From contig OZ076409.1 in NCBI GenBank assembly GCA_964187785.1, forward strand, positions 45,014,001-45,078,000: a stretch of 64,000 bases of DNA, written 5' to 3'. Positions within the stretch are counted from its first letter, which is position 1, and the number at the start of each line of letters is the position of its first letter. The position numbers and the translations under genes are program-made. Under the pieces are notes generated by a model. That model did no database searches. It was not told where the DNA came from and was given only the letters and a program-made list of their open reading frames with translations. Below are positions 14,120 to 58,011 of this stretch, one piece after another. The DNA is from Amphiscolops sp. MND2022. Lineage: Eukaryota.

Positions 14120-15290
14120 TGTCGCATCCACCAAGATGCGATGGTTCCGTGGTGCAGCTTTGAAGAGGAACAGATGATAGACTCATTTCAACAAACTCTC
14201 CAAAACTTTGCTGAACCCGGTTTATATGAGGTCTTAAAACTCAATGTTGTTTAGTCTCGAAAGTCATGTAAATATGATATTTATATTATGATTGTTGTGA
14301 ATAGACCTTCATCATAGTGCTAACACACCTTCATTGCTTCATTGAGAACCCTAGTTTGAATAGTTCAATGAGTTATCTCATTGCCTGATCATATATTCTA
14401 AAGGTCCTAATGCGTCTAGATTCATAATCAGATAGTAATCTACTTCTTAGCTAGTACAATTATGCGGTACTATGCGGATTGAGGTGTGACGTATACTCGT
14501 CATTATGCGTTTTTACTAGTATCATTATGCGGCATTATACGTTTCAAGGTGTAACGAGTATGCGGCATTATGCGCTTTTCATAAAAACTTTATACGGCAT
14601 CCTGCGAACTAGTAGTGACGCATACTCGTCACTATGCGGTTCTCGCGGAACTTGTTAAATAAATCCAGCACGAGTTAAAATGTCATCTAGAAGCCATTTC
14701 AATTACAAATGAAGGTCATCTTTAGAGATTCCCAGGGTTCATTAGTTTCTTTTCCCAATCATACTGTAATGATGTCATGTAATTGTGCTATTTTTATAAT
14801 ATAACGTCATTGGACGTAATTCTATTTTTGTCTCGATTTCATACAATGACTCCCATAAAAAGGAGTGTCATGATTTTTGGATTTTGTTCGGAGTTTTCAA
14901 TCAGAGAGATTCATTAAGAATCCAACCTTCATCAAGTGCAGTTACTTTCTCAAATAACTGTAAAACTTTGATTTCGCCACTGTAAAACTTCAGATTTGCT
15001 TCTCTTGTGGGATATAAGACTAATTCAAATTCTTCTCCAAAAGGCAGAAAACATTTTCACTTGAGAATAAAATAAGAAATAAACGAAGCCGAAGGTCTAG
15101 AAGACCTGAGACACCGTCCCCAGTCAGAGAAGTGGAAGTAACACAAATAGAAACCCCTAAAACAGGTAATGAAGCTTTAATTGATCTTAGTATTGTTGCC
15201 CAAGGAAATTTAGGTGAAAATAGCTCTGAAAACCAGTTAACCGAACCTAGTCAAATAAGCAATGAGATGCAAGTTTGGACCCAAATCATG
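14120..15290 (+). repeat. 5' LTR plus leader plus gag start of element A
   Basis: 1171 bp, roughly 97% identical by eye to 28643-29814. The true LTR end is uncertain; a candidate is ...TTCATCA at ~14314/28837, followed in copy 2 by the PBS-like TGGTGC. Confidence 0.88.
14461..14640. repeat. TATGCG(G) motif array 1 (also at 28984-29164)
   Basis: About 7 TATGCG copies plus TATACG variants; contains the hairpin TAGTGACG-catact-CGTCACTA. Confidence 0.85.
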
Positions 15291-16747
15291 GAACAAAAGA
15301 ACAACGATAGGATTGAAAAGATGAGAGAAGAAATGGAAAACAAACTTGAAGCGATTCTAAAGGAAATAAAATCCAATAAGAGTGCATCCACAGTAACTAA
15401 TCCTAGGTCGGATATAAACGAAATGCGAGAAAGCCAAACTTCGGGATCCAAATGGGGTAGATCTATAGGAGTTCATGCATCTAATAACGAAAACTCTGAT
15501 TCCGAGAACGACGACTATCCTCTTAGAGCATCTAAAATGAAGGACTTGAAACATCCTGCTAAACCCTTCTTTGAAACTGAAACAGACTTAGACCAAATAG
15601 AGCTTTCAAATGAAGAATCCGAACAAGAGGATTATCACATGGTGACAGGAGCCAACCGACAACTCCATAGACAGAGCTCACAAAAGCTAAATGATACAAT
15701 TAGATCCCATGCTGTCCAAAATACAACGAACTCAATAACACAACCACTTGATCCAGTTAATCAAATTGCTCTTGCAATGGAGAAATTGGCCAACAAAAAC
15801 TCTCCCCAATCACTTTTTCACCCCAAAAATACACTCACCTTCAATGGGAAAAATGAGAAAAACGAGAAATTCGAATATTTTGAGGACTTGTTCCATACAA
15901 CATTACGAATGCAACCAAACTTAACAGAGGAAATGAAAATAAACCTTTTCCACGCCCATCTGAGAGGTTTGGCACTTAAAACTTTTAAAAACATACAAAG
16001 AACTCCCACCACGACGTTGGAAGACATTTTAAAAGTCTTTCGCCGAAAATATGTGAAACCAGAGTCCAGTGCATCTGCTAAACGTAGATTCAACAGACTC
16101 TTTTTCGACCCAGAAAACCAAAAACTCCCAGACTTCTTAGAAGAACTCCAAGCAAGTGCTGAAAAAGCGTTCGGGGACAATGCCCACCAAATGATAGAGA
16201 ACCTACTCTATGCCAAAATGCCTCCCCACCTCAAAAAGTCCATTAACCAAGCTTGTCTTGAGAATGGCACTTACGATCAAATTGTCAAACACCTTGAAAG
16301 AGAAATGGAACTTAACGGCCTAGAAGCAGATGACACACTCGTCAAAACTCAAATGACCGTTACTAAAAAAGAACAAAATACTGAAAAAACCAACAAAAAC
16401 AAACTGACAAAACCAAAAAACAAACTCCAAAAACAGTACCTGATAAAACCCTCGAAAACGACCAATGCCGTTACTGCAAGGAGACAGGTCACATGATGAC
16501 TGACTGTCCCAAATTAGCCAAACGACGCAAACTTGAGGAAGATCCGGAAGCCGAAAAATGTCAAAATTGCAACACCCTAGGACATGATGAAGAAAACTGT
16601 TACTTCGGAGCCAATATGGAAAATCGTCCAACCAAATGGAACCTCACAGAAGCTCAGAAAAAAGTCATTGAAAACTACAAACAAGCCAAAAAACCTATAA
16701 AACCAAAAATGGAACACCAAAAATCCTCGTCGAAGAATTTAAACTAG
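15072..16747 (+). pseudogene. gag: gag of element A (start codon mutated, one frameshift near 16400)
   Basis: Capsid-like FEYFEDLFHTTL...AHLRGLALKTF. Two CCHC knuckles (CRYCKETGHMMTDC, CQNCNTLGHDEENC) lie in the frame of 16493..16747. The intact start MGNKRS is seen in the 3' copy at 29596. Confidence 0.85.
16738..16744 (+). other. -1 ribosomal frameshift slippery heptamer T TTA AAC at the gag/pol junction
   Basis: Directly precedes gag stop TAG (16745-47). The -1 frame (FKLETPR...) is open and continuous with the pol ORF at 16813. Confidence 0.8.
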
Positions 16748-19700
16748 AAACGCCACGCCTTTACACAAAATCACCACAAAAACCAAACTCAATTGATGAC
16801 TGGCAGCATCAGTTGAACCCAAAACCTATAAAAACATCAGCCTGTGAAGCTGACTCAATAACAGAAAATTTACAACAGTTAACTCTAGAAACTCAACCTG
16901 AAGACTTATACGAACTCTTACACGATGCACCAGACAACTACTTTCCTGAACAATCCAACAGCGCTGAAAGTGACCCAAACCCAGAAATCCAACACAGAAC
17001 AAAACACCACGTAACAATAAAAACTTCTTGCAATAATGCGAAACAACCTCTTTTAAATGAAGACCTCACGGAACATAGACAATTTGATAAGGAACGAAAC
17101 TTATCATATCTCCCAATTTCAACCTCTTTAACATTGAAGCGAAAACGCCACTTGTACTACATTCCGATGGACTTCGAAAAACTCACGCTTGATGGTCTCA
17201 TTGATACTGGAGCTCTCACAAGTGCAATCTCAGAACAAGACCTCAACAAAATCAAATTGCTCGCCAATGAGGCAATAAAAGAAACCGGTCCCCCACCGAA
17301 CTTCCAAATTATGGTGGCAAATGGACAACTAGAAGTCCCCATCGGTACGGTACTACTAGAAATTGAAGTGGCCGACTTCATGTTAAAAGAAAACTTCATC
17401 ATCATGAAAAATCTACCGAACCCACTAATCGGATTGTGTTTCCTCCGGAGAAATAACGCAAATTTCGATGTCACACAGGGTATCCTAATCATCCCCTATC
17501 TATCAATGCAACTTAAACCAGAAACACAAACATCAATACGGCAAGCAACACCATTATTTGCTGAAAATACCTACACCTTACAACCAGGCGAAACACTCGC
17601 CATCGCAAGCAGAATGCCCCATTCGATGGATCATAATGCCACTGGCATAGTCACCCCATCGCAACAATATGAAAATCACGATAGTATTTTCATCACTGCA
17701 TCGCTCAGCACTGTCAACAACAATGCTATCGGCTATCAAATCATCAACTTCTCTGAACTACCAGACACCATTACAATGGACACCCATTTAGCAGATTTCG
17801 AGATTTTAACACCAGAACAAATCAAACATATACAACCAGTGGACCCCGCATTGTTATCGTTTATGATTCAACACGAAGAAACAACAGAGGTCCACATAAA
17901 CGAACTTCTTAAAGTACCACAACAAAATCCCGAGCAGGAGACCTACTGGTTCCCTACTCCTGATGAACCAGGCGACCCTGCAACATATACCCCAATTCAG
18001 CAACGCATCTATCAAGAGCTTCTTGATCTACAAGAACTCGAGAAACTAAACCCAAATGATAACAACTCCTCAAGAAAAACATTTCTTTCAAACTTCGACT
18101 GGTCTGATACAACACTCGGCCCAGCCGAACGACAAGAAATTGAGGAAATTCTCATCGAATTTCACGACATCTTTGCCAGACATCGTTCCGATATCGGAAT
18201 AAACCGCGAATTCAAAGTGAAATTAACGCCGAATGATGACAGACCTGCTTACAGCCAAAGTCTGCCAACTCCTATCAGTCTCAAAGATGATATCACAGTA
18301 GAACTCGCACTTCTACACAAGTACGGTATCATTACAACTTTACCTTTTTCCAAATACGCCAGCCCAATTTTTGCACAGCGCAAACCCAACGGGCGTCTTA
18401 GACTTTTAGTAGACCTCAGAAAGATTAACAACCTCATCACTGAAAATTACACCAATAACAATCACCCGGTAAGCACTTTATCAGATGCAGCACAACATAT
18501 GGCAGGGAAGAAACTGTTCTGCAAGTTGGATTGCTCACAGGCTTATCACTGCCTCCAGATGGCAGATTACCAATCCATTCAAATGCTAGCCTTTAATTTT
18601 GCCAGTAGAACATTTGCTTATCGTCGTCTTGCTCAAGGCCTCTCTAGATCACTTTCTGCATTTTCAAGCTTTATGAGAGAGTACCTAGATCGAGCAATTA
18701 AAGCTGACCAATGTGCCCAATATGTCGATGACATTGGCATAGCGGCAAACGACACAAAACAACTCTGCATAAATATCAAAACTGTCTTTGAATGCATTCG
18801 CAATGCAGGACTAAAACTCTCCATGTCAAAATGTCACTTTGGCGTCAAACAAGTCGACTTCCTAGGGCGTACAATAACACCAGACGGAGTCGCCTCACAA
18901 GCGGTTAAAACCACACAGATTTTCTATCAAAACTCCGATTCCCCAAGTCAAAGAAAGTGTTGCAAAGGTATATTGGATTTCTAAATTATTATCGAAACTA
19001 CATACCACGCCTTTCAGAACGGCTTTCTCCGTTCTTCAAACTCCTCAAAGAAACCTCCAAATTCTACGTACCCACAAACTTGGTAGAAGCCTTCACCAAC
19101 CTCAACAAACTTCTGGAAAATTCCTGCCAATTAGCATTAAAACAACCACTGAAAAGTAAACAACTTATAGTCATGTCCGACGCAAGTTTCACAGCAGCAG
19201 GATATGCTATCATGATCGAAGACGACCCGAACCAAAAACTTCAATCTAAACGAAAAACGTATGCACCCATTGCATTTGGTTCAAAAACCTTTAACCCAAC
19301 ACAAACTAAAAAGTCAATATATGCGAAAGAATTCCTTTCCATATATTTCGCATTTGTAGAGTTTGGACACCTTATGTGGGGAAGTACCTTCCCAGTCATA
19401 GTCTTCACTGACAATCGATCAGTAACACGCTTTTTTCAAGCAAAAATGATTCCACCAGCACTCTGGAACGCGTGCGATTACGTCTTACAATATAATTTCG
19501 TAATTGCTCATGTAGCTGGATCAATGAACACAGCAGCTGACTTCTTATCTAGAACAGAAGTTGACCCAACTGAAAAACTAGAAATGACAATCCGCAATGA
19601 CATTCACACCAAAGCTATTGAGGTGAATATCCAATCAACCGGAATTGTAGACGAAGAGCAAATTTACATTCTACCCGAAGTTGAAATTGACGAAAATCAA

Positions 19701-21619
19701 CTTTGGGAAGAGGAACAAAATATTCGAAACCAAGCTCAAACAGAAACACACAATGAACCAGAAACTGACGTCTCTGAACTACAACAATTTCACAAACCCA
19801 CATCGGGGTTGATCTCAATCTCATCAGGATACTTTAAAGATAATGCAAGAATTCGCCTCGAGCAGAACAACGACATCGTCCTTAGAAATCTGAGAGCAAA
19901 ACTTGAAGGAAACCCATTTGACGAAAACGAATTGGCGTCCGATTATAGATACCAACACTACTTACAAAACATAACCCGAATAGAAATAAAACAGGAAGTC
20001 CTTACACGCAAAAACTACACTGACACAGGAACCATATCTCATTACCAAATTCTCTTACCGATCCAACTTCTAGAAGAATTTCTTCAAGCCCTACATGGTC
20101 ACAATTCAAACCACCCAGGAATCACCAAGATGATTCAAGAAGCCCGACAAAAATACTACTACCCATGTATGGCTAAATACATCAAAAAATGGGTCAGTAA
20201 CTGCCAAGTGTGTATCCAAACAAAACGCATTAACAATGATCTTCTCAGACCTGAACTCTTAAATTGCCCAGAATGGGATCTTGGTCCAGAGGACATTCTG
20301 CAAATGGATATTTTGCCAAACCTCCTCCCAAGCGGAGGCTATGACCATATCATCACGGCGATAGATGTCTTCTCAAAATATTTGTTTGCTTACCCTGTAA
20401 CTCGCATCAATGCCACAACGGTGTCAAGAGTTATCATGGACATACTATGCAAGCACACTTACCTTCCTACAACGATAATCACAGATTTAGGCACTCAATT
20501 CAATGCGCAAATAACGCACGAAGTTGCAGCAGTGCTAGGAATTGAACTTAAACAAGCAACAATGAAACATGCTCAAACGATAGGACTCCTTGAGAGAACC
20601 CATGCTTCAGTCAAAACACACCTGAAAGCTGCAACAGGTGAATTCAGGAATAACTGGCATAAGTATCTACCGTTGGCAGTCCTAAACCACAATACAACGT
20701 ATCATGCATCACTCGGTTGCGAGCCTTCACGAGTTTTCCATGGTAGAATACCACATAATATCCTAGACTACAAACTTGGATATAACCCTAACCCACGATA
20801 CCAACCACAGACTGATGTGGCTGAAGAAATCCAAAAACGTATGAAAATCCTTCTAGATCAAACCAAGAAGAACATCATGCAATCTTATCTCAAATACAAA
20901 GCCTACTATGATAGGTAAGCAAAAGCAGCTCCGCTCGAAACGACAGACTATTGTTACATCCTCAACCCAAAAGCTGATACTCAAGCGACAAAAATACCAA
21001 TCCGAGAATTCAGATGGTGTGGACCATATAAAGTGGAAAAAGTACTCCCTAACAAAAATTATATTGTCCGGAGACTTGGCACTAACAAAACGCAATTACT
21101 ACACAGGATCCGGCTGCGGAAATTTATTCCACAAGCCACATTGGCAGATATTTTTGTTCGTGAAACTGATTGGCAAAAAGATGATCAAACGCCTATAGCA
21201 AATGATGATCTATAAGCCCAATCATGGAACACAAATTTTGGAACGAACCCGTTTGAAGACGGGCCGTCAGAGTTTTCTCAGGACACTGACGATGCTGAAT
21301 ATGCTCCGATTCAAATACCCGAAAATAACCACCCGCCCTCCCCTGAATCTTCAAAAAATGGTGGGGGGAACCCAGTGGAACAGACCACTGAACCAGATCA
21401 AAATTACGACAATAACGAAAATGAAATTCCACAACACATCAGTGATGATGATGAAAAAACCCAAAAAGAACCAAATAATCCATCAGTTGATGATACCCAA
21501 AAAACCCCAGAAAACTCTCAAAACACCCCATTGAAGAAAAACCCATAAATACACGTGGTGAAAAATACAACTTACGCCCCAATCCCAACCCAAACTACTC
21601 TGACTCATACAGATATTAG
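16738..21619 (+). pseudogene. pol: pol of element A (PR, RT, RNase H, IN with GPY module), disrupted
   Basis: LIDTGA protease, YVDD RT, SDAS/FTDN RNase H, HHCC zinc finger and DDE integrase, WCGPYKV. Frameshift at ~18910-18957, stops at 20916 and 21213, frameshift at ~21540. Confidence 0.93.
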
Positions 21620-37781: not shown

Positions 37782-38122
37782 GGGTGGCTGTAAATAGGTC
37801 GAATTTTTCTGGTCGAAAGGACTGAGGTCGAACCTTTTGATCGAATTACAGGGATCGAATGGAATGGGGACGAATTTTAAAGTATTTGTTGTATGGCTCG
37901 GTCGCTTCGGTCCCTTCGCCAAGTAGCAACATTGAGGCATGGCCATATGGCACGTCGCTCCGCTTCGCTTCGCTCCTGCATTCAGGACACTAGGGGTATG
38001 TGAACATATCTGACTACGTTTCGATACGAGTTGTTTCGATCCCATTCAAAAATTTGGTAATGTCGACCTGAGGACTAACTCTGATTTTCGATCCCGTTCC
38101 TTCGACCTATTTCCGCCCACTC
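37782..38122 (+). mobile_element. Mutator-type MITE copy 2
   Basis: Same family as 34723-35066; 9 bp TSD GTGGAAAAA/GTGTAAAAA. Confidence 0.88.
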
Positions 38123-38295
38123 GTGTAAAAATAATGACAACAGGTCATTTCTGAAATGTTACACCAGAACCAGGGTTTTCAATCTTATATACAATCTCAA
38201 TTTCAATCTCAATCTTTTTCTCTCCAATCTTAATCTCAATCTTTTTATCTGAAAAATTCAATATCAATCTCAATCTCAGTTTTTACTTCATCAAT

Positions 38296-38605
38296 TGATA
38301 TACCAGATATATATGTTGCTTGATTTTATATCATTCCCCCAACCCCCCGTATGTCTAGACTTTATAACAAATGCACTTCATCAATGTAACTGATTAATAT
38401 TCTAGACGTAAACTTGATGTACCCACTTTATATTCTGTACGATGCATTTTGATTTAGAACACAACTATAATTCATTCTTCACCAACCAGTTGTCTTCCTT
38501 TAAGACCTAATATCTGCAGCTCTATTAGTGTCTCTTAAAGTACTAAGATCAAATGAACATTCCATCTCTGTCCCACTGATCTATAGTAAGAACTCAAGTA
38601 CTTTA
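38296..38605 (+). repeat. 5' LTR of element B (310 bp)
   Basis: Differs from the 3' LTR by one substitution and one 2 bp indel, as read by eye. Confidence 0.96.
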
Positions 38606-38607
38606 AC

Positions 38608-38620
38608 TGGTGCGACCATC
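38608..38620 (+). promoter_or_regulatory. Candidate tRNA primer-binding site
   Basis: TGGTGCGACC lies 2 nt after the LTR end. The cognate tRNA is not identified. Confidence 0.65.
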
Positions 38621-38685: not shown

Positions 38686-38888
38686 TGTACTAATTACCCA
38701 ACGTGATTCGACCTCGTAGTCGGTACAAACGCAATTCTTCTTCTGTACTAATCACATATTGTGGTTCGACCTAGTAGTCGGTACATCAAAACTTTCTGTA
38801 CTAATCACCTTTTGTGATTCAGTTACACACTGGTACACTATCTTCTCTTGTACTAATCACCTTTTGTGATTCAGCTCCTGCTGGTACA
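38686..38888 (+). ncRNA. Four tandem structured RNA units (three-way junctions) in the 5' leader
   Basis: Units 38686-727, 38744-785, 38797-837, 38849-888: TGTAC-T-AATCAC-loop-GTGATT-stem3-GTACA, with compensatory and G-U changes. Confidence 0.8.
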
Positions 38889-39647
38889 ACCATTTCTTTT
38901 CTTATATTCATTTTTCATACTTGAACTCTCTAATATACCTTCCTTTTCGTTTTTGTCTCGCTCCTTTTTCTAACCCACATTTCTTCGCCACCACTTCCTT
39001 TCTCACAATTCTCCATATTATTTCATGCCTTCTTTGAATGACTCCGTTTGTATTTGTTTAATCCTCCTTTACATTTTTGGTCTTTGCGCAATTGTTTTGC
39101 TCCTTGTTGACAAACTCATCCTGCCTTTTATTCCCCACGCCTTTGAACAATATAGAACATCTTCACTTTAATAATTATATATGTTTCTCACTGAAAATCT
39201 TGCCACTATTATCCTTTTCGTTTCCTATATCTTTGCCATGATGGTTTTTTTGATGCTTCTCATTGAAAAAATCGTTGAATCTCTTTTCAACTAACTTCCC
39301 TTTCTTTTCCATTTTCCCTTTTTTCTTTCCCTATCACCTCCTTGATTTTTCCGCATATTTTATTAACACCTTCCCTATTCTTTCGTACCATTCTCCTTTT
39401 CCTCACTTTGTATGCACCTCCTCTTCCTTCACCCCACTCACCTCCTTGCCCTTTTCCAACTTCTTTTTCTTTCTCTTTTCCTCATAACTACATCCATATA
39501 TTTTTATCCCTCTTTCCTCTCCTTTTACACTTATCTTCGCCTCAAAATCCATCGGTACTTTCACCCTCTTCCTACTGAACCATCTATTCACCCTGACGTA
39601 ATTATGGATTGGATTTGGTTACATTTCAATCCTCATAAACATTCCTA

Positions 39648-47562: not shown

Positions 47563-47808
47563 TTAATATTCATTTTTTATTTGGATTTTCTCTCTCCTAT
47601 TGTCCTCAGTCTAAACTTTTTTAAGTTCGACATGTGACAATCTAATTAACTATTTTCTTCTAGTTCCATCTCCCCATTCTATCTCAGAAACACAAACTGA
47701 ACGGTTGCTCTCATCAAGACTGTTGCTTTCATCAAGACTTGTTGTCATACAGAAACCATTAACATACAAAATTTAATCTTCAATTCTTTTCCTTTAATTC
47801 ATTCATCA

Positions 47809-49236
47809 TTGTCTCTACTTCCAAAACTAATAACTTTTCATCCCTTCCTATTTAATAATAATCTTAAAAATTTGTTTTTTCCTTTTGTTTCCATCCTGGA
47901 TCTCACTGTATTCTTGTCCGACTCCTCCTCTCGAACCTCTTCTACCGTTTCAACTGACATTATACCTTCTTCACAAACTTCTGTATCAACTCAACAACCT
48001 CCTTTAAATCCTATCCCAATTACCCCTTCTTTAGATACCACCCCTGTTAATACTCCAACCCATACTCCTCTTCAAACCTCCGTACCTCAACAAACTCAAA
48101 CTTCTCTAACTCTTCCACTCTCTGACACAGAATTTCCTTTTGACATAACCCCTAATCATTCTCCACCTTCCTCTTCCTTTCATATTCCTGATCCAAGTGA
48201 CATTAACCCTACTCTTCTTCGAAATATTAATAACCCCACTCTTCCTCGATTAAAACTTATCCCTACTTCTATAAAATCTTTTCGCCGTCGCTCCCAATTA
48301 GATAATTCTCTTTCTATCCCTCCACCTTGTTCTCACACCTCTACTAAGTCTTCTTTACCTCCTCCTAAACCTCTTAAAATCCCCGTACTTGAATCTATTG
48401 ATTCACTCCAGAAAAAATCAGATTTGAGTGAGATCGATTCAACTACTTCCTCTCTTCTTTACCCACGTCTTCCACTTTCCAATTCTGCTTCTAAATATAC
48501 AACTTCTTCCTTAGATAATCTTCTTGACACTTCCTCTGAATCTACTATTCGCCCTCCCCTTCGTCATAGATATAATCTCCGTAATAACCGTCGTCCTTCT
48601 CCTTCCCTTGCAAGCACTAACTCTTCTCTTTTACGCCACCACGCTCAATCTCTTTCTTCAGACTCCCTTTCAAACGCAGAAAACACTCCTACTTCTGGAA
48701 TTGACACTGTCTTTTCTCAACGTTCCTCTATTTCTTCTTATAATCATACTGGTCATCTTTTCTCTCGCCCAACTTCTCAAAATTCCAGTCTTCTTTCATC
48801 TGACAATCACTTACTTAACATTGATCTTACCACTGATCAATATTCTACTCCTCCTACACCTAATCGTGTCGATTATCCTCTAATTGTAAATCATACACTT
48901 GTTAATAGCCCTCGCCAAGATCCTCGTTTTCTTTATCTTGCCACTCATAAACTTAATTCAAATCTCCATATTTCCGACACACGTCGTCGTAAAGAATTTC
49001 TCCGTCTCGAAGAACCGAGTCTAGAACTTAAATTTGAAATCAACGTCAAATTCCATAACTTAAGTCCTCATCCCATTCCTTCCCATACAACAGTAAATTT
49101 TAAATCTCTTCCCCATCCATTTATTGCCACCAATCTTAGTCTTTTTGTTAGTGATCATCCACCATTTCGTCTTTTACACGGTTCAATTACTTTTCTTAAT
49201 ACCCTCACCTTTTTAAAATACACTGCCCAATTTTAA
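47809..49236 (+). CDS. Accessory ORF X (about 475 codons, S/P/T-rich; start codon uncertain)
   Basis: Long stop-free frame between pol and env that ends 2 nt before the env ATG. It has no ATG at its start and contains RYNLR. Confidence 0.55.
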   Translation: MSLLPKLITFHPFLFNNNLKNLFFPFVSILDLTVFLSDSSSRTSSTVSTDIIPSSQTSVSTQQPPLNPIPITPSLDTTPVNTPTHTPLQTSVPQQTQTSLTLPLSDTEFPFDITPNHSPPSSSFHIPDPSDINPTLLRNINNPTLPRLKLIPTSIKSFRRRSQLDNSLSIPPPCSHTSTKSSLPPPKPLKIPVLESIDSLQKKSDLSEIDSTTSSLLYPRLPLSNSASKYTTSSLDNLLDTSSESTIRPPLRHRYNLRNNRRPSPSLASTNSSLLRHHAQSLSSDSLSNAENTPTSGIDTVFSQRSSISSYNHTGHLFSRPTSQNSSLLSSDNHLLNIDLTTDQYSTPPTPNRVDYPLIVNHTLVNSPRQDPRFLYLATHKLNSNLHISDTRRRKEFLRLEEPSLELKFEINVKFHNLSPHPIPSHTTVNFKSLPHPFIATNLSLFVSDHPPFRLLHGSITFLNTLTFLKYTAQF

Positions 49237-49238
49237 AA

Positions 49239-51932
49239 ATGTTCTTCCTTTTTTTCAACTCACTCTATTATTTTCTCCCTTCCCTTCTCTTGGTACTTTC
49301 TCAAAATTCTCCATCTTCCGATCATGTAGATCCCAATGATCCCCATATTTCAGACCTTTTAGTCTCTCACTATGATTGCTCTAAACAACATAATTTAAGA
49401 CAGTTTAGTCTTACCCGAGTACAACCATGCGTTCAAGCCCCCTCTGCTTTTGAAACAACACGCGCTATTGTCAATGTTTTCGTTCGTGCTAAAGCTAGAC
49501 GCCTCCGCGCTTGGACGTGTGAAGCATACGTAAAACGAGAAAAATTTGTCTGTGCCCAATCTGATTACAAATATCGTCGTCATGACCGTACGGACTATCA
49601 TCAGAATACCATGGAACGTCCTCGTACTCTTGATCCAACCGAATGTAAACACGCTATTCGTCATTTAAACGGAACTCATAATCCTCAACTCGATGCTTTT
49701 AATTATTCCAATTCTTTTACCTTTTTCAATGATATTCGAAAACAACGCCTTTTAGAAACAAAACAACCTCCTTTTCGTATTACTAAACTCAATACTTATC
49801 ATTATGGTGCTTTTGCTTGGATCACCAATTCACAATTAGTATTAAACTCAACTCTGGAAGAAAAAGCTGTTTGCTGGGACCGCTATGAATATATTATTGA
49901 AAAAGACAGTTGGTCTCTCATTGTAAAAGAAATTGAAATCACTTATGATGACAAAGAAAATAAATTAATATATCATGGACATACTTTACCTTGCCTCCAC
50001 GACGATGGTTTTTGTAAACCAACAATATTAACACCTTTCACCATTGTTTTGTTTCCTGAAGACCTTTGTTTAATTTTCTCTATTCATTCCTTTATTGGTC
50101 GAATGTCTAAACTCAATAACCGCTATTGGCTTGAAACTGAACATTTTTTCAATAATCATTCCTCTACTGAGTCAACCAATTCTCCTTACCACGATACCAA
50201 ATCTCAAACACGTCTTTCTCGCTTTGAAATTTTTCCTGAAAACAAAATGTTTTGCAATAAACCTACCCCCTTACATCTTACGCAATATCCTGACTTGTTT
50301 GTAACGTACACCGAAGGTTTTAATATGCAAACTGGTAAACATAATCCTCTTCAACTTCCTCAAGACGAACAATACAACCAACTAACCACCCAGTTAATAT
50401 CTGGAAAATTAATTCATACTAAAGATAAACTTCTTTTCCCTGCCCTAAATTCTTCGAACAACTTCGCCACCATCGATTATGAAGCTCATATTAACACTAA
50501 ACTTGATTACTCAATAAATCATGTTTTTAAAAGCATGTCTGTTGCTGAACTTAACACTCTTCACACTATATGTGAAGTCGAACGTACTCAACTTTTAACC
50601 ATACTCGCTTTGTCTGTTAAAAATCCACAACTTGGTGGTTTCCTCTTAACTCAAAATCGTAGCAACTTTTTATATGTTGAAGGCTCTACTGCCTGGTTAT
50701 ATGACTGTCCTCATCACCTTTCACCTCTCTATATTGCTGACAAATGTTATGACAAGATTCCTGTCAATTATCTTGACACTGTCATGTATGTAGATCCTAT
50801 TACACGTCAAACTTTTGAATATGCTAACCAAATACCTTGTGAAAATAATCCTCAAAATGTTATTTCTCTTGACCCAGACACCGATCAATATTACGTTCTA
50901 ACTCCTCAACCTATTAAAAAAGATCCCCCTCTTCTTTTTGAACCAACTCAAATTCAAACCGCTATTAGCCCGAATACTTTCACCGCTCAAGACGCTGGCA
51001 TTTATTCACAAAAAGAATTAAAACATTTTTGGAATCGAGTTTTATTCACTAAACACTCTGATAATACTCTCCAGCTTCTCGGAAAAGCTATCAGTTATGA
51101 ATTCATGAATCAACAATCTGACAATTCCTTTCCTAGTAATCCTTATCGATCACTCCGAATTGGTCTTCATGACTACATGTTAAACCTGACCCCATTCTTC
51201 TCTCCTGACTGGTTTACTAATGCTTTCATCAAACTTTTTGGCTATCCATGCTATATTTTAACTCAATGTGGAATATACTTCTCTACTGCTCTTTTTCTAC
51301 AATTCGCTTTCAATGCACTTTTTAGTATTTACCGTTCATTCACTGTTCGAAATCTCCTTAAAAAACAAATTTCCGTAATAACTGCCTTAGGATTTGGTTT
51401 CTTTGGCACTATTACCAAAACCATGATGACTGCTATGATTAAATCAACTCATTCATCATCAGATTCTGATGATTCTGATTCTCCTCATTCCCCTTTAGCA
51501 AACAATAATACCACGTCTTCCAGTTTTAAACCTCGTCCTTCTAAATATCATACAAATATTAAAACAAAACTTCTTAGTTTAAAAAATAAAAATCCCATGA
51601 AAAGAAGTTCACCAAACTCTTCACCTATTAAAACCCCCTCTTCCTCGATATTTCATGCTACTTCCATTAATCCTACACACCCCCCTAACACCGAAGACTA
51701 TTCGCCTCCACCTCCAAATTATAATTCTCACCTTTCATCTCATAATAATCTTTCTTTACAACACTCCCAATTACCTTCATTATCTTCTCCCCCTATTTTC
51801 ATAATTCTCCTCTTCCTGATGACACTAATTGTGATAACTCTTCTACTGATTCCCCCATTCATACTCTCTGGCAATCTACTAAAATTTACCCTCCTACTCC
51901 ACCACCAATTAAAACTAATGACATTCCGTTAA
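49239..51932 (+). CDS. env: Envelope glycoprotein, chuvirus-G/herpes gB-like (class III fusogen); tail probably frameshifted near 51800
   Basis: Signal peptide; HYDCSK...FSLTRVQPC; CEVERTQLLTILAL...NP; CYDKIPV...YVDPITR...IPC cysteine pattern; several N-x-S/T sequons; C-terminal TM; S/P-rich tail. Confidence 0.85.
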   Translation: MFFLFFNSLYYFLPSLLLVLSQNSPSSDHVDPNDPHISDLLVSHYDCSKQHNLRQFSLTRVQPCVQAPSAFETTRAIVNVFVRAKARRLRAWTCEAYVKREKFVCAQSDYKYRRHDRTDYHQNTMERPRTLDPTECKHAIRHLNGTHNPQLDAFNYSNSFTFFNDIRKQRLLETKQPPFRITKLNTYHYGAFAWITNSQLVLNSTLEEKAVCWDRYEYIIEKDSWSLIVKEIEITYDDKENKLIYHGHTLPCLHDDGFCKPTILTPFTIVLFPEDLCLIFSIHSFIGRMSKLNNRYWLETEHFFNNHSSTESTNSPYHDTKSQTRLSRFEIFPENKMFCNKPTPLHLTQYPDLFVTYTEGFNMQTGKHNPLQLPQDEQYNQLTTQLISGKLIHTKDKLLFPALNSSNNFATIDYEAHINTKLDYSINHVFKSMSVAELNTLHTICEVERTQLLTILALSVKNPQLGGFLLTQNRSNFLYVEGSTAWLYDCPHHLSPLYIADKCYDKIPVNYLDTVMYVDPITRQTFEYANQIPCENNPQNVISLDPDTDQYYVLTPQPIKKDPPLLFEPTQIQTAISPNTFTAQDAGIYSQKELKHFWNRVLFTKHSDNTLQLLGKAISYEFMNQQSDNSFPSNPYRSLRIGLHDYMLNLTPFFSPDWFTNAFIKLFGYPCYILTQCGIYFSTALFLQFAFNALFSIYRSFTVRNLLKKQISVITALGFGFFGTITKTMMTAMIKSTHSSSDSDDSDSPHSPLANNNTTSSSFKPRPSKYHTNIKTKLLSLKNKNPMKRSSPNSSPIKTPSSSIFHATSINPTHPPNTEDYSPPPPNYNSHLSSHNNLSLQHSQLPSLSSPPIFIILLFLMTLIVITLLLIPPFILSGNLLKFTLLLHHQLKLMTFR

Positions 51933-52335
51933 CTTCTGTCAATACTAATTTTGACCCACCTGACAGTCCTGTCAAAGTTTATTCTTCTTGTCGCTTCCCT
52001 CCAGAATAATATATTTACCTTTAATTTTCTTAATTCTCACTCTGAATCTTAAATACCCTAACCCAATTATATTTCCATACTAATATTGTATCTTTTCTCC
52101 ATATAATTAAACCTACTTCCTTTTTCATTTGTCGTCATTCTTGCTTTCACTCTAGTTACTCCTACCCACTTTCTCCAAACAATTTTCTTGAACTTTTCTA
52201 TACATCTTACTTTCATCTAAATTCATACAATCTTTTCTAAATAGAAAACACACATTCGTATAACCTTATCCAAACGCACATTCGCATAATTTTCACCCTT
52301 TCAACTATTCATTTCTACCTTCTTTCCACACAAAA

Positions 52336-53817
52336 ATGGCCACTATCAATCCTGAGGAAGAACTTCTTTCCAGTATTGCATCTTTGTCACCCCCTCTTTC
52401 TCTTAAATCTGGTACTCCTGATCTTCCCCTTGCCAATGATCTCCTTCCATCTAATTTTAACAATACTCCCGAACCTACTGTACCTACTACAAATAATTCC
52501 ACCATTTCTCAATCTAATAAACCATCTTCGAATAATCTTAAATCTCGTCATTCTCCTACTCCCCCTCCAAATAATCTTCATTTTACTATTGATAATCATC
52601 CTATTCCTCCTAAAAAGAAATATAATATCCTCGAAGATCCTGTTTTTATTGATTCTGGTATTTTACCTCCAACTCTTCAACCATTAAAAACTCCTTCTCA
52701 ATCAAATACAATGACTGACGAAGTCCTCCGTACTCATCCAAATTTTAAAGCTAACCTCCCTTCATTTTTCATGACCCCTACTTCTTATAAATTTCGTTTT
52801 CCTCAAGATCGTAGTTTTGACCACTATGTTGCTTATGCTTCCAAAAATCTACCACAACTCGCCTATTGGCAAAACAATCGTGTTCGTTTCTTCCAATTCC
52901 AATTCAACCTTCTTAAACCAACCCAACATGATTTAAATACCAATCCCAATGATATAACCACAACTCCCTCTGTTAAAAAACTTCACCACCAAACCTATCA
53001 ACTTTTTCTTCAACACAAACACCCTCAAAACTTCATCTTCCAAAATCATAAATTTACTTCTCCATTTTCATACCATTCTCACTATTCTTTAAACCACCTC
53101 TTCACTATTGGAACAATTCGTAAATATGATCCTGTAAAATAATATTTTGTTCTCTCTTCCTATCATGATCCTACTCGGCCGTTATTTGTCCCTCAAGAAG
53201 CACTTAATGTCATTGATGACTTTTTACTTCCTACACACATTCCCAACGCTGTTTCAAATTTCTTCCCAAAAATGAATAAATTAGTAGAAACTCCTCTCGA
53301 TGATCATTCTCGTTCACTCTACACAGCACTAGTTCACAAACACTATTCTCTGGCACAACTCAATTTTATTATCGCAAAACTTTCCTCTTTTATTCTCAAA
53401 AAACAATACAAATATTTCTCATTAAACATCTCAGATGAAATTCTCCAAACTCTTCCTAAACATACTCCTCCTAATACTACGTCTGAACCTTCTCACACTA
53501 CAATAATCCCTCCTTCATCTAATTCATATGTTCTCCAGACTACCAATCCTAATGTGTGCATAAATTCTTTCTCTTGTCCAACAGACAAATTTGTCTCAGA
53601 AATACTTACTCTTCTCCGTCCACATGTTGAAATCGCCCCTAATACTGATCCTTTTGTTATTTTAAACCACATCTTTGACACTTTCCGTAATCTTCAATCT
53701 CTACTTCAACTACACTCAACTGATATCCAAAATTTAACGATCTCTACAATTCATGTCAACGATTTTCTTAAAAAACTTGTTCTACTTGAAACTCCTCCTC
53801 AATTCACTTCCTCTTAA
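52336..53817 (+). pseudogene. Accessory ORF Y (~493 codons, one internal TAA at 53140)
   Basis: ORFs 52336..53142 and 53272..53817 are in the same frame, separated by a single stop; AAAAATGG start context. Confidence 0.65.
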
Positions 53818-54483
53818 ACCTCTCTCTTACTGGTAAACACTTTCTTTCTTTTAATTCCTTTTCACAAAAAATTTTTTTTTCAATCGACTGGATAACAAAT
53901 TTCCATAGATAACAAATTTCCATCTTATCTTTTTCGACCTCTTATTCAATTAACATAGATATTACATCTTTCACTCCTTATTAACATATATCATCTTCCT
54001 TCTCACTTTTGACACTCTTTCCTATTGTTTCCTCTACTCCTTAATAAATTAACTTGACTTTTTCACTTGTTCTTTCAATAAATGTTGACACTATCCTCAT
54101 AATATCTTCTAACATTATTAACTTTTGACAATCTTTTTCCAATTTTCTCTTTCATTTGCTTTTCCAACTCTCTTCAGATCACTCCTCTTTTGAATATCAA
54201 ATTCTAAATCTTCTACTGAATACCCACATTTCCGTTTTTGTCACGCTTATACTATCAGGTATAATATGTTTCAAATAACTTTCCAACTTTTCAAACACAA
54301 ATTCAACAAGTATTTTACACCTCTTTCTTTTTTCGTATTTTCAATTCTATCATATATTCCTCCTTTAGAATCAATAAATTCACCACAACACTTTCTCTAT
54401 ATTAAAACTTTCTCTATATTAAATTACTCTACATACTATAAAAATAATCATAATCCAACATTATCATTTATTCTGTTTCAGTA

Positions 54484-55389
54484 ATGACATCTTATCCTCC
54501 TTCGACATTGGCATATCCTCTTCTCACTCAACTTCTGGACTCTTCGCTGCCTTTCCCTGTTTCTTCCACTTCTTCAACATTCACTCTTCCAACTGTTGCC
54601 GCTACCTCTTCATCATCCCCCATTGTTTCATCATCTGCATCATCCACTGTGGCATCTGTGATATCATCCAATGTTGCATCTATAACATCTGCTGTTTCAC
54701 TATCACCCATTCCTTCTTTTGTCAATACTACAGCTTCAAATACATCTGCCTCAACTACACTTCCAGTGCTTTCTTCTTCTATTTCGTCTCCAGTTTCATC
54801 GATCGAGTCTTCTTTCTTCCTCCATCCCAAAGATGCTGTTGCCACTTCTCCACACTTCCAACAATATTCAGCCGTCCGCCAATTGACCCGTGATCTTCAA
54901 CAGAAAAAACCCAAGCATCCCAGACGTCCACACTTGCCTTCCGATATAATTCATCAACCTGTTCGTCGACTGGTCCACACAGTGGTCTATAAACAAAAGT
55001 TGAACCAGTATATAGATGCACTCAAATTGTATGAAAAACACATTGATGAACTTATTGAACAAACTACTTTTGAATTAGATAAAATTAATAATAAACCCCC
55101 CCTTTCAAAATTGCGAAAATTTAAAACGCCTCAGTCCATGCAATTATCCCCTCTATCTATTCAAATCCCTTCTAATAATTGCTATAACCATTATAATTGT
55201 TTCTCCTCTAATACTCTCCATTGTTCACATGTTCCTATCAACTATGCTATTCATTCACATTTTCCTCCCCCTCCACCTTCCCCGGCCTTAATCCCCATTC
55301 GCATTGAAGCCATAACCCCCACTTTTCAACCTCCCTCCCCTCTAAACGATTTAGACCAGTTGGTAACTTCGTTGAACGACGTTGATTAA
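54484..55389 (+). CDS. Accessory ORF Z (301 aa; S/T-rich N-terminus, central coiled-coil-like helix, Pro-rich C-terminus)
   Basis: Intact ATG..TAA, directly preceded by a splice-acceptor-like TTCTGTTTCAG. Confidence 0.62.
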   Translation: MTSYPPSTLAYPLLTQLLDSSLPFPVSSTSSTFTLPTVAATSSSSPIVSSSASSTVASVISSNVASITSAVSLSPIPSFVNTTASNTSASTTLPVLSSSISSPVSSIESSFFLHPKDAVATSPHFQQYSAVRQLTRDLQQKKPKHPRRPHLPSDIIHQPVRRLVHTVVYKQKLNQYIDALKLYEKHIDELIEQTTFELDKINNKPPLSKLRKFKTPQSMQLSPLSIQIPSNNCYNHYNCFSSNTLHCSHVPINYAIHSHFPPPPPSPALIPIRIEAITPTFQPPSPLNDLDQLVTSLNDVD

Positions 55390-56700
55390 AGAATCATTGA
55401 TTAAATATTTTTTGAAATTTTATCATCCATATTTTGACCATATTCACTTTGTCTGTTTTCAAACACATCTTTTAACCCCCCCATGTTTTTCTTGACCCTT
55501 ATAACCTCTACTATTGTACTATACCTTCCATTTTATCTAAAATTTTCAAAATTTCCTCACTAAAATTTCCCATTTTTTTCCCAAAATCTGCTTGTAACTT
55601 CGGTTCTAACAAATCAATTTTTTCAAATTCTATCTTAGCATGATGCTTTTGACCTACTTACTCTTAAATGCTGGAGCTATCCATTTTCTTCCCTTTTCTT
55701 CACCATTAATAAACTTTTTGAACCATAACTCCAAATTTTTTCTCTTCCTCCCAAAACATTTTTTGACTTTACTCCTCTTTAACTTCAATTCAACAAAATA
55801 TCTCCTTTTTAATTTTACTCCTACTCATCATATGTTCAAACCTACTTACCTCGGTATCTAACTCTTCTTCACTTGCTTTTTAACGAACTAAATTTGCGTG
55901 ATCAAAACATTTCTTCCATTTTCTCAATTGAAAAAATACCTGCTACGTGATATAAATTTGAACAAATATTGACTCATATGGCTTTGTTTTCGCTCAAAAT
56001 TTGCTTTCTTACGCCGCCTCTTTGCTTTGAAATTCTGACGTCTCATTTTAGTTGATTAAAAAGGCCCATAAGACAAACGCTTAGTTAAAAAACAACTGAG
56101 AATCTTCGGCTTCTTGCATGAATTTCCTAGTCAATTAGGCTGTCAAATTTTGCCATCTCTCACTTTTCATGTTCTCCTCCTTGTCAATCAAACTTTTACC
56201 GCCTCGGAAGATACTAACTCATTCGTCCTGTACAAAATTTTCATGAAATCTGAAACAATTTTGCTGAATTCGTAACCAACATGAACATGTCGAATTTCAA
56301 ATATTGAACTGAAAATAAACAAAAATAAAATTTTTCTTCTTCCTCTTCTCCCTTTCCTATTCTCTCATGTATTCCTGACCTATTAACTAAAGTTAATACA
56401 TCACTCCCTTGAAGATACTTTTATCTACACTAAACATCAAAAAATGCCCGTAACTCACGAAAGGAAAGATATGAAGACAACCCTATCATTAAAAATTTTT
56501 TTATTATTTTTCACAAAATATATGAAGACAACTTTTCAAATGAAAACCCCTATTGCAAGATTATTAAAATTCCTCCTTTTTCTTTCTCTAAACATATTGA
56601 ACTAAACTCCAACCTTTTTAATGGAACCCCAATTTCCAAGATACCTTTTAACAATAACCCTAAAAAAATTTCTTTTCTCTTTTTTCAAAACCCGGTCGGA

Positions 56701-57008
56701 TGATATACCAGATATATATGTTGCTTGATTTTATATCATTCCCCCAACCCCCCGTATGTCTAGACTTTATAACAAATGCACTTCATCAATGTAACTGATT
56801 AATATTCTAGACGTAAACTTGATGTACCCACTTTATATTCTGTACGATGCATTTCGATTTAGAACACAACTATAATTCATTCTTCACCAACCAGTTGTCT
56901 TCCTTTAAGACCTAATATCTGCAGCTCTATTAGTGTCTTAAAGTACTAAGATCAAATGAACATTCCATCTCTGTCCCACTGATCTATAGTAAGAACTCAA
57001 GTACTTTA
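56701..57008 (+). repeat. 3' LTR of element B (308 bp)
   Basis: Copy of 38296-38605, followed by TSD CAAT. Confidence 0.96.
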
Positions 57009-57661
57009 CAATCTTTCAATATTTTTCGAGTTATTTTAACAAAATGCCAAAAGACAATCTTTTTATTTGAAAATTGTAACAGTGAATCTGTTTTAGACTT
57101 CTATGATTACTCTAAAATGAAAACGAAGCCTGGCCCTGGTTGAAGTTGGTATGCATATAAACAATTGATTTTTGTTGCCTTTGTTTGTCAGCTTCGATAA
57201 CGCGTATAGATGCCATCAGAAAACTGAACTTGCCCCACCAAGCTTTCAATTTTTTTTCAATCTTATAAAGTATTGTCAATCTCAATCTCAAACTTGTTTT
57301 CGAGGACCTTGTCAATCTCAAGTTCAATCTCAATCTTTGTTTTTCAATCTCAATCTTGAAAATTTGCTGAGATTGAAAACACTGACCAGAACCCCACCAA
57401 CTTGTAACGCTATATCGTCCCTTTTCAACCTTCAAAGGTATGAAGCCATCAAAATTTGTGAAATGCGGTATCGGCAATTCTTTCTCTTTAGCCGATTACG
57501 CTTGGAAAAATTGGCAGACGGAATCTCCGATGTGTCATTGTGGCAAAAGTGAAGAGACTACAGAACATTTCTTTCTGGCATGTGGACTATACCAAGACAT
57601 CAGACCTGAAGACATTGACTCACTGAATCTCCTTGACCCTGATGATTGCAATACCTTTGTC

Positions 57662-58011
57662 GGGTGGCTGTAAATAGGTCGAATTTTTCTGGTCGAAAGG
57701 ACAGAGGTCGAACCTTTTGATCGAATTGCAGGGATCGAAAGGAATGCGGTCGAATTTTATCGTATTTGTTGTATGGCTCGGTCGCTTCGCTCCCTTTGCC
57801 AAGTAGCAACATTGAGGCATGACCATATGGCACGTCGCTCCGCTTCGCTTCGCTCCTGCATTCAGGGCACTAGGGGTATGTAAACATATCTGACTACGTT
57901 ATAAAAAATTCGATCCGAGTTGTTTCGATCCCATTCAAAAAATTTGGTATGTCGACCTGAGGACTAACTCTGATTTTCGATCCCGTTCCTTCGACCTACT
58001 TCCGCCCACCC
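57662..58011 (+). mobile_element. Mutator-type MITE copy 3
   Basis: Same family; 9 bp TSD ACCTTTGTC/ACCATTGTC. Confidence 0.88.

Follow-up and report, generated by a model that had tools for sequence, protein, structure and literature searches.

A 64-kb stretch of the genome of Amphiscolops sp. MND2022 (OZ076409.1:45,014,001-45,078,000, hereafter the window) carries, just behind the primer-binding site (PBS) of a retroelement, a series of short repeated units that look capable of folding as RNA, and the question raised by this locus is whether the array is real and, if so, what it is for and what reads it. The host of the array is an 18.7-kb env-bearing Ty3/gypsy LTR element, here called family A, the parts of which lie in the window as follows.

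38292-38295, + strand: left target-site duplication (TSD) CAAT, the same four letters standing at 57009-57012
38296-38605, + strand: 5' LTR with TG...TA ends, which are fixed by the TSD
38608-38617, + strand: PBS, starting two bases after the LTR end
38686-38727, + strand: unit 1, P3 CGAC/GUCG, private U-G in P2
38744-38785, + strand: unit 2, P3 CGAC/GUCG, lineage-fixed U-G at the third P2 pair
38797-38837, + strand: unit 3, P3 CAGU/ACUG
38849-38888, + strand: unit 4, P3 CAGC/GCUG
39025-39171, + strand: small hydrophobic ORF 1, 48 aa, with the first AUG after the PBS
39181-39294, + strand: small hydrophobic ORF 2, 37 aa
39412-39648, + strand: small hydrophobic ORF 3, 78 aa
39648-47562, + strand: gag-pol region, split over several frames in the window copy
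49200-51932, + strand: env-like ORF, Pfam Monjiviricetes_fusion, E 8.4e-28
52264-53817, + strand: ORF-X, an orphan accessory gene common to family A and the sister families B and C, stop-interrupted in the window copy
54454-55389, + strand: ORF-Y, a fast-diverging accessory gene
56701-57008, + strand: 3' LTR, near-identical to the 5' LTR

The original prediction of four tandem three-way-junction units of 40-42 nt behind the PBS is confirmed on the + strand, the array starting 78 nt beyond the PBS start, and the same goes for the anatomy of the unit, which consists of a 5-bp P1, one unpaired U, a 6-bp P2 and a 4-bp P3 with zero nucleotides at the other two junctions. A three-way-junction descriptor applied to the + strand of the whole 64 kb matches the four units and an AT microsatellite and nothing else, and ten Markov resamples of the window gave one match of the unit geometry in total. 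The sense strand of the element is very G-poor (GC skew about -0.5), and G makes up 15% of the array against 3-4% of its flanks. Loops and linkers had both been described as freely varying, and this is true of the loops but not of the linkers, which are pyrimidine-rich and have conserved letters before P1. Indeed UCUG is found immediately before P1 in 151 of 210 distinct units (72%), the corresponding figure for the G positions of the element body being 3.2%, although the former frequency is inflated since the scan matrix that collected the units contained UCUG columns.

The element fits the env-carrying Ty3/gypsy elements of PMC13524379, as far as the available part of that source describes them, the class being assigned by features and with their sequences outside our RT tree. 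It has two LTRs (its 5' LTR aligns with 56701-57008, 238 nt being 100% and 76 nt 99% identical), a TSD and a PBS; its gag-pol runs from an orphan N-terminal domain through CA, one CCHC knuckle with an Arg/Ser-rich tail, PR, RT and RNase H to IN, and pol is followed by a fusion-protein ORF (Pfam PF24664) that is present in A, B and C and in the two D families scanned. Both gag-pol and ORF-X are interrupted in the window copy. The pattern of LTR end plus PBS has 309 matches in the genome compared with 8 in controls, and in families B, C, E and D the LTR is likewise followed by the first 9 letters of this PBS. A search for the primer tRNA found no tRNA genes in the window, and a term search of 7 supplements of PMC13524379 found no occurrence of the PBS sequence. 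The termini are TG...TA and not TG...CA, a two-base spacer stands 5' of the PBS, and no purine-rich tract precedes the 3' LTR (56686-56700 inspected). Between pol and env lies a 511-codon open frame (47701-49236) which is Ser/Pro-rich, lacks an early AUG and belongs to no Pfam family. The element is nested inside another repeat, which in turn is flanked by direct repeats of 94-95% identity standing 19.9 kb apart (37782-38120 and 57662-58009), and another Ty3/gypsy element, unrelated to it and lacking the units, occupies 15024-20918 of the window.

Upstream of gag there are eight AUGs and three small ORFs, with the array 5' of the first AUG. Small ORF 1 is retained across subfamilies and a similar ORF is found in C and E; more generally, two or three small hydrophobic ORFs occur in leaders of A, B, C, E and D (L192:3510-3985, L199:2728, L203:3550, L207:3909). 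They recall the transmembrane sORF2 of MDG1 elements as presented in the available part of 10.1101/2025.03.14.642691, yet the elements here also have env.

The array is by no means confined to this copy. A degenerate core pattern, in which pairing was not forced, has 1,381 matches in the genome as opposed to 1 for the reversed control. In a PBS-anchored sample of 83 sites, read from 100 listed among the 309 matches of LTR end plus PBS, at least one unit lies within 800 nt in 78 of the 83 and 68 have 3-8 units; the number per site ranges from 1 to 8 and is usually 3-8, and the first unit is mostly found 41-80 nt from the PBS start. Among the five unit-less sites, L055 is a chance match inside gag and L081 is a deletion, and the latter was dropped as an informative array-less lineage, its deletion junction being single-copy. 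Neither an amplified non-coding derivative retaining the array nor an amplified family with an internal deletion was found in 40 stretches, which held 1 internally deleted element. Public viral and metagenome contigs gave 53 lone pattern matches (5 viral, 48 in metagenome stretches), which we take to be due to chance since they occur one each, none is an array and 7 of the 53 fold under a loose descriptor. A look-up in sequencing runs listed no RNA holder. All leaders compared come from one genome, in which the more distant relatives P0039 and P0143 were not found with the queries used. At two loci read (L062:6296; L098, - strand:3964) family B copies are inserted in older family A copies.

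A position-matrix scan of the PBS-anchored sample collected 373 units with 210 distinct sequences, and conserved cores are favored in this set since the matrix was built on the core. In the 31 units recurring at two or more loci, 453 of 462 pair cells are held (448 Watson-Crick and 5 G-U) with differing loops. When these 31 units are aligned with 60 random singletons out of 179, 90.5% of the cells pair, compared with 86.7% in shuffles (0/500), and 90 cells are changed on both sides where shuffles lead one to expect 35 (0/500), but since the units are related these double changes reflect few events, and the number of pairs with a double-sided change is not above that of shuffles (6 versus 4.9; 158/500). 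Slid controls pair in 20-43% of cells. Covariation is seen only at pairs 2-4 of P3 and at pairs 3 and 6 of P2, while P1, the junction U (198/210), the first pair of P3 and the remaining pairs of P2 scarcely change; P1 shows no covariation in the unit alignment, and RNAalifold on the decayed unit set retains only three P3 pairs. The compensatory changes reported for P3 are borne out across subfamilies, the unit-3 position reading CAGC/GCUG in sister subfamilies. That selection acts on structure rather than sequence is on the other hand not supported: a folded RNA indeed seems to be selected, but P1, the junction U, most of P2 and the first P3 pair hardly vary, which argues that the core sequence is selected too. 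Judging from this pattern of variation we can conclude that the array is real and that both its fold and its core sequence are under selection.

Which partner P1 takes up is less clear-cut. Folded alone in ViennaRNA, units 2-4 are three-way junctions, whereas in the fold of the array, computed without coaxial stacking, P1 pairs with the previous unit at 0.74, 0.29 and 0.89 and within-unit closure is at 0.08 or less. The named structures score -39.8 for all junctions, -36.7 for neighbor hairpins and -47.5 for neighbor hairpins plus the outer pair. Since its GUAC core is self-complementary, P1 can find a partner in its own unit, in the preceding one or in a second RNA, and the gain predicted for a homodimer is -7.5 kcal/mol. 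P1 may accordingly pair with the neighboring unit rather than close the junction in such models, but within-unit closure is supported by the terminal half-sites being conserved like the internal ones (64/68 and 60/68 versus 258/291 and 257/291, counts which are biased by the matrix) and by units of the sister families, which close within the unit with covariation. A dimer initiation site, which calls for a palindrome of at least 6 nt exposed in an apical loop, is not apparent, the sole palindrome noted being the 4-nt GUAC inside P1 and the loops being free to vary.

With respect to the strand, the fold z-score of the region against shuffles is -3.25 on the + and -4.85 on the - strand. The G-U wobbles of P2 had been put forward as evidence for the + strand, and this stands for the U-G of unit 2, which is lineage-fixed, 51 of 60 U-G units holding the second place in the array. 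It does not stand for the AAUUAC of unit 1, which is private (1 of 30 loci read) and, being confined to the window copy, is no strand evidence. C-A+ is isosteric with U-G, and at the P2 position of the unit-2 U-G, C-A is found in 16 of 373 units, mostly of older subfamilies, and U-G in 60. Singleton units contain 120 G-U versus 97 A-C, and one G-U is common to families C and E (11 loci). Sense-strand RNA is therefore favored by these wobbles, but the support for the strand is modest.

RT homologues led to further families in the same genome, and in an RT tree of 27 rows, which is without family E and without the published errantivirus sequences (PMC13524379), family A forms a group with C and B (80% and 77% identical to it, respectively) at 100/100, while the D families lie apart with 44-47% RT identity to A. 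The Gag N-terminus of family E is 64% identical to that of C. In family B, 22 of 22 leaders contain 4-8 hairpins built around a conserved 5x2 internal loop, the lower stems being ACCG/CGGU or ACUG/CAGU and hence compensatory. Family C has 5 bulged hairpins in 5 of 5 leaders, and 3-4 hairpins of the C type are found in 7 of 7 family E leaders with the PBS in the stretch, an eighth locus being without a PBS there; these C/E hairpins have a 3' bulge of 6-7 nt and lower stems that are again compensatory, CUGAC/GUCAG or CCAAC/GUUGG. The arrays of A, B, C and E are all within about 600 nt of the PBS, have pyrimidine-rich linkers and are richer in G than their flanks by a factor of about two to four. 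What is new here, as far as these leaders tell, is that tandem covarying units differ between sister families at the same place in the leader. In family B a conserved, GC-richer structured stretch lies directly 3' of the array (L166, about PBS+590 to +800).

Comparable repeats were found in 0 of 7 D leaders, one D family having gag begin about 40 nt 3' of the PBS, and yet the array-less D families are abundant and have long open ORFs. Two further observations concern the D leaders: a GC-rich and strongly folding stretch of ~250 nt that separates the small ORFs from gag in several D families (L199:3080-3330 and the same region of L201, L205 and L208), an IRES-like candidate without an Rfam match at gathering score, and in another D family (L209-L211, PBS to about +330) a long multi-hairpin leader with a long-range closing helix. 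In two D families env is followed by a MATH/TRAF-domain ORF (L215:6155-7090 and L216:8276-9265), with Pfam E-values of 2.4e-9 and 2.4e-22, and the N-terminus of one of these is weakly PAM2-like.

As for the proteins, ORF-X is 32-34% identical overall among A, B and C, and tblastn found no match to it in the D stretches read (L197-L211, L214-L217), of which the downstream ones come from 4 D families. It has no Pfam family and no ESM Atlas match, its core model has a pLDDT of 43.8, and the alignment reveals no conspicuous arginine-rich motif. A Gag N-terminal domain of 300 residues is likewise common to A, B and C and without a match in the D stretches read; it belongs to no family, and Foldseek at E <= 0.001 matched nothing in PDB or BFVD (model pLDDT 49.6, pTM 0.51). 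Identity between A and the sister families is 63-66% for CA, 67-70% for the knuckle and 29-41% for the Arg/Ser tail.

The motif had not been recognized from the sequence, and Rfam agrees, giving nothing at gathering score in 7 loci and weak unrelated matches at loose E-values for the window leader and 3 loci. A reading of the letters GUUCGA as a tRNA T-loop or B-box was dropped, since UUCAG stands there in half of the units, with a compensating change in the stem. Literature searches, the coverage of which excludes most subscription papers, found no report of such a repeated, family-specific RNA array. The array is thus uncatalogued, and if the packaging reading argued below is right it works like a retroviral psi.

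Comparison with such systems extends to the available parts of the papers cited. In HIV-1, the core signal for encapsidation is a tandem three-way junction (PMC7599994) and shares with the array the 5' leader position, the tandem junctions and a proposed multivalent binding of Gag/NC, but it is one long-range, non-repeated fold with exposed guanosines, whereas here there are 3-8 autonomous repeats of 40 nt with all G predicted to be paired. The psi of MoMuLV and FIV resembles the array in having several UCUG that are paired in the monomer, as well as self-complementary stems that re-pair (PMC7599994, PMC13736810), and MoMuLV has a single CCHC knuckle as does family A Gag; unlike in these viruses, no register shift that frees G is predicted here, GACG kissing hairpins are absent from A and UCUG is not general in the sisters. 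Ty3 belongs to the same superfamily and has short palindromes near its 5' end, but it uses one 6-nt palindrome and ill-defined packaging regions, and a repeated module is not seen in the part of PMC11381356 consulted. The errantiviruses with class III (HSV/gB-type) env have the same gag-pol-env order, Ty3/gypsy pol, fusion env, LTRs and PBS (PMC13524379), but the element here is 18.7 kb long with extra ORFs on both sides and a PBS that is absent from their supplements. The LTR search of that study excluded spacings over 14 kb, and the terms 'RNA structure', 'stem-loop' and 'UTR' are absent from its main text.

Our preferred reading, which we would give a probability of about 45%, is that the element's own Gag reads the array as a packaging signal, one that is multivalent and specific to the family. 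Its place in the 5' leader near the PBS is that of a psi, and this position favors a packaging site, since the dimerization and packaging sequences of retroelements sit in the structured 5' end (PMC11381356, in the part available). Covarying stems that carry an invariant core and leave the loops free furthermore resemble what one would expect of a protein site. Each unit would fold into its P2 and P3 hairpins, with P1 either sealing the junction or pairing instead with a neighbor or a second RNA, and each would be one candidate site for the own Gag, so that several Gag might load side by side and nucleate a capsid on that RNA. The motif would be family-specific because co-resident families would otherwise package each other's RNA, and a reader encoded by the element seems preferable to a host factor, as the latter would be expected to see one motif and not three. 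In the parts of PMC7599994 and PMC13736810 available, UCUG serves as the site for FIV Gag and for the NC of MoMuLV, which has a single knuckle, and family A Gag also has one CCHC knuckle, but ViennaRNA predicts the G of UCUG to be paired in either fold, its unpaired probability being at most 0.04, and in the sister families only part of the C/E and B units contain UCUG. With knuckles that are 67-70% identical between A, B and C, NC by itself can hardly account for three motifs, and specificity would rather come from the fast-changing parts of Gag, that is the orphan N-terminal domain and the Arg/Ser-rich tail. The abundance of the array-less D families means on the other hand that arrays are not needed for packaging in the group at large.

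The reader may also be sought outside Gag. RRE/Rev and TAR/Tat are virus-specific systems in which structured sites with bulges or internal loops are loaded multivalently, and the array could by analogy be a response element for ORF-X or ORF-Y, the loading of several units promoting export of unspliced RNA, its stability or transcription. The B and C units, being internal-loop and bulged hairpins, are indeed shaped like TAR and RRE sites, the elements themselves are complex, having env as well as a number of additional ORFs, and ORF-X is present in A, B and C and unmatched in the array-less D stretches. The Gag N-terminal domain is however distributed identically, so that co-occurrence does not single out ORF-X, the downstream comparison with D covers only 4 families, and the missing Pfam and Atlas matches, the low-confidence model and the lack of an evident arginine-rich motif do not help the case. 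The array differs from RRE and TAR in being made of discrete repeats directly behind the PBS and in that its cognate protein is a candidate. We consider an accessory reader, though it is the main rival, unlikely. A host protein of the SF1 or Quaking-like type, binding the array to control splicing, retention or translation, is suggested by the heptamer UACUAAY, present in every unit, which is the branch-point or STAR-protein motif. A heptamer of this branch-point type occurs in 4 of 4 window units and 5, 3 and 2 times in a B, a C and an E array, respectively, against resampled means of 0.5-0.8, but the enrichment is overstated because tandem copies are not independent. In family B it sits in the apical loop, but one B subfamily (7 loci) breaks it there, and in A and C it is buried in stems. 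CAG-type A units do present a CAG after the heptamer at branch-point distance, but this AG is absent from CGAC-type units and covaries with the stem, and there are 0 spliced-type joints among the DNA loci fetched. Since a host protein would also leave three different folds unexplained, we find this quite improbable.

Nor need the array act as sense RNA or by binding a protein at all. The regulatory regions of Drosophila gypsy, ZAM and Idefix are built of tandem repeats. Errantivirus LTR and 5' UTR regions of Drosophila, those of the three elements included, contain DNA insulators and enhancers according to the part of PMC1885662 available, and are thus a precedent for regulatory sequence at this end, although they act as DNA, whereas the compensatory stems of the array point to RNA. 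A role as DNA or on the minus strand (enhancer, insulator, minus-strand DNA hairpins), or even function-less upkeep by template switching in reverse transcription, would agree with the minus strand folding at least as well as the plus strand, with the recurrence of C-A, which is G-U on the minus strand, in older subfamilies and with the nearly balanced singletons. A DNA-binding factor would on the other hand need neither compensatory stems nor half-sites spaced by about 3 to 19 nt, the unit-2 U-G is kept across subfamilies with diverged loops and the C/E G-U is kept as well, both on the sense strand, and G-rich structured arrays persist on a G-poor strand in three motif families, all of which makes such a role improbable. 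An element for translation of the small ORFs or gag (IRES, shunt or brake) could be supposed from the array preceding the first AUG and so many AUGs and small ORFs preceding gag, but D families have comparable small hydrophobic upstream ORFs and no array, a 60-codon ORF begins before the array in family B and the number of units varies from 3 to 8, and there is accordingly little to be said for it. Ribozymes are frequent in retroelements, and the three-helix architecture with its conserved core might bring to mind a small self-cleaving ribozyme in each unit. However, the junction has a single unpaired nucleotide, there is no match to the hammerhead or any other Rfam ribozyme, and cleavage just 3' of the PBS would presumably sever the genomic RNA, so this notion can hardly be taken seriously.

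If the packaging reading is followed further, it is conceivable, but on the whole rather doubtful, that a clade of giant, complex retroelements uses the array as a modular RNA barcode, in which 3-8 copies of a family's own aptamer-like fold are read by the orphan Gag N-terminal domain or by ORF-X, and fold and reader turn over together and so keep co-resident RNAs apart. The selection of self-RNA is poorly defined in Ty3/gypsy elements, even with regard to the packaging signal of yeast Ty3, in the part of PMC11381356 available. Discrete repeats of 40 nt with natural covariation, a copy-number series of 3-8 and three sister motifs here make cognate versus sister binding directly testable. The barcode, if true, would amount to a code of recognition between RNA and protein that is new and has no fewer than three natural pairs orthogonal to one another, and if its readers are the orphan Gag domain or ORF-X, these would be new RNA-binding folds that provide natural orthogonal pairs of tag and protein of the MS2/PP7 kind.
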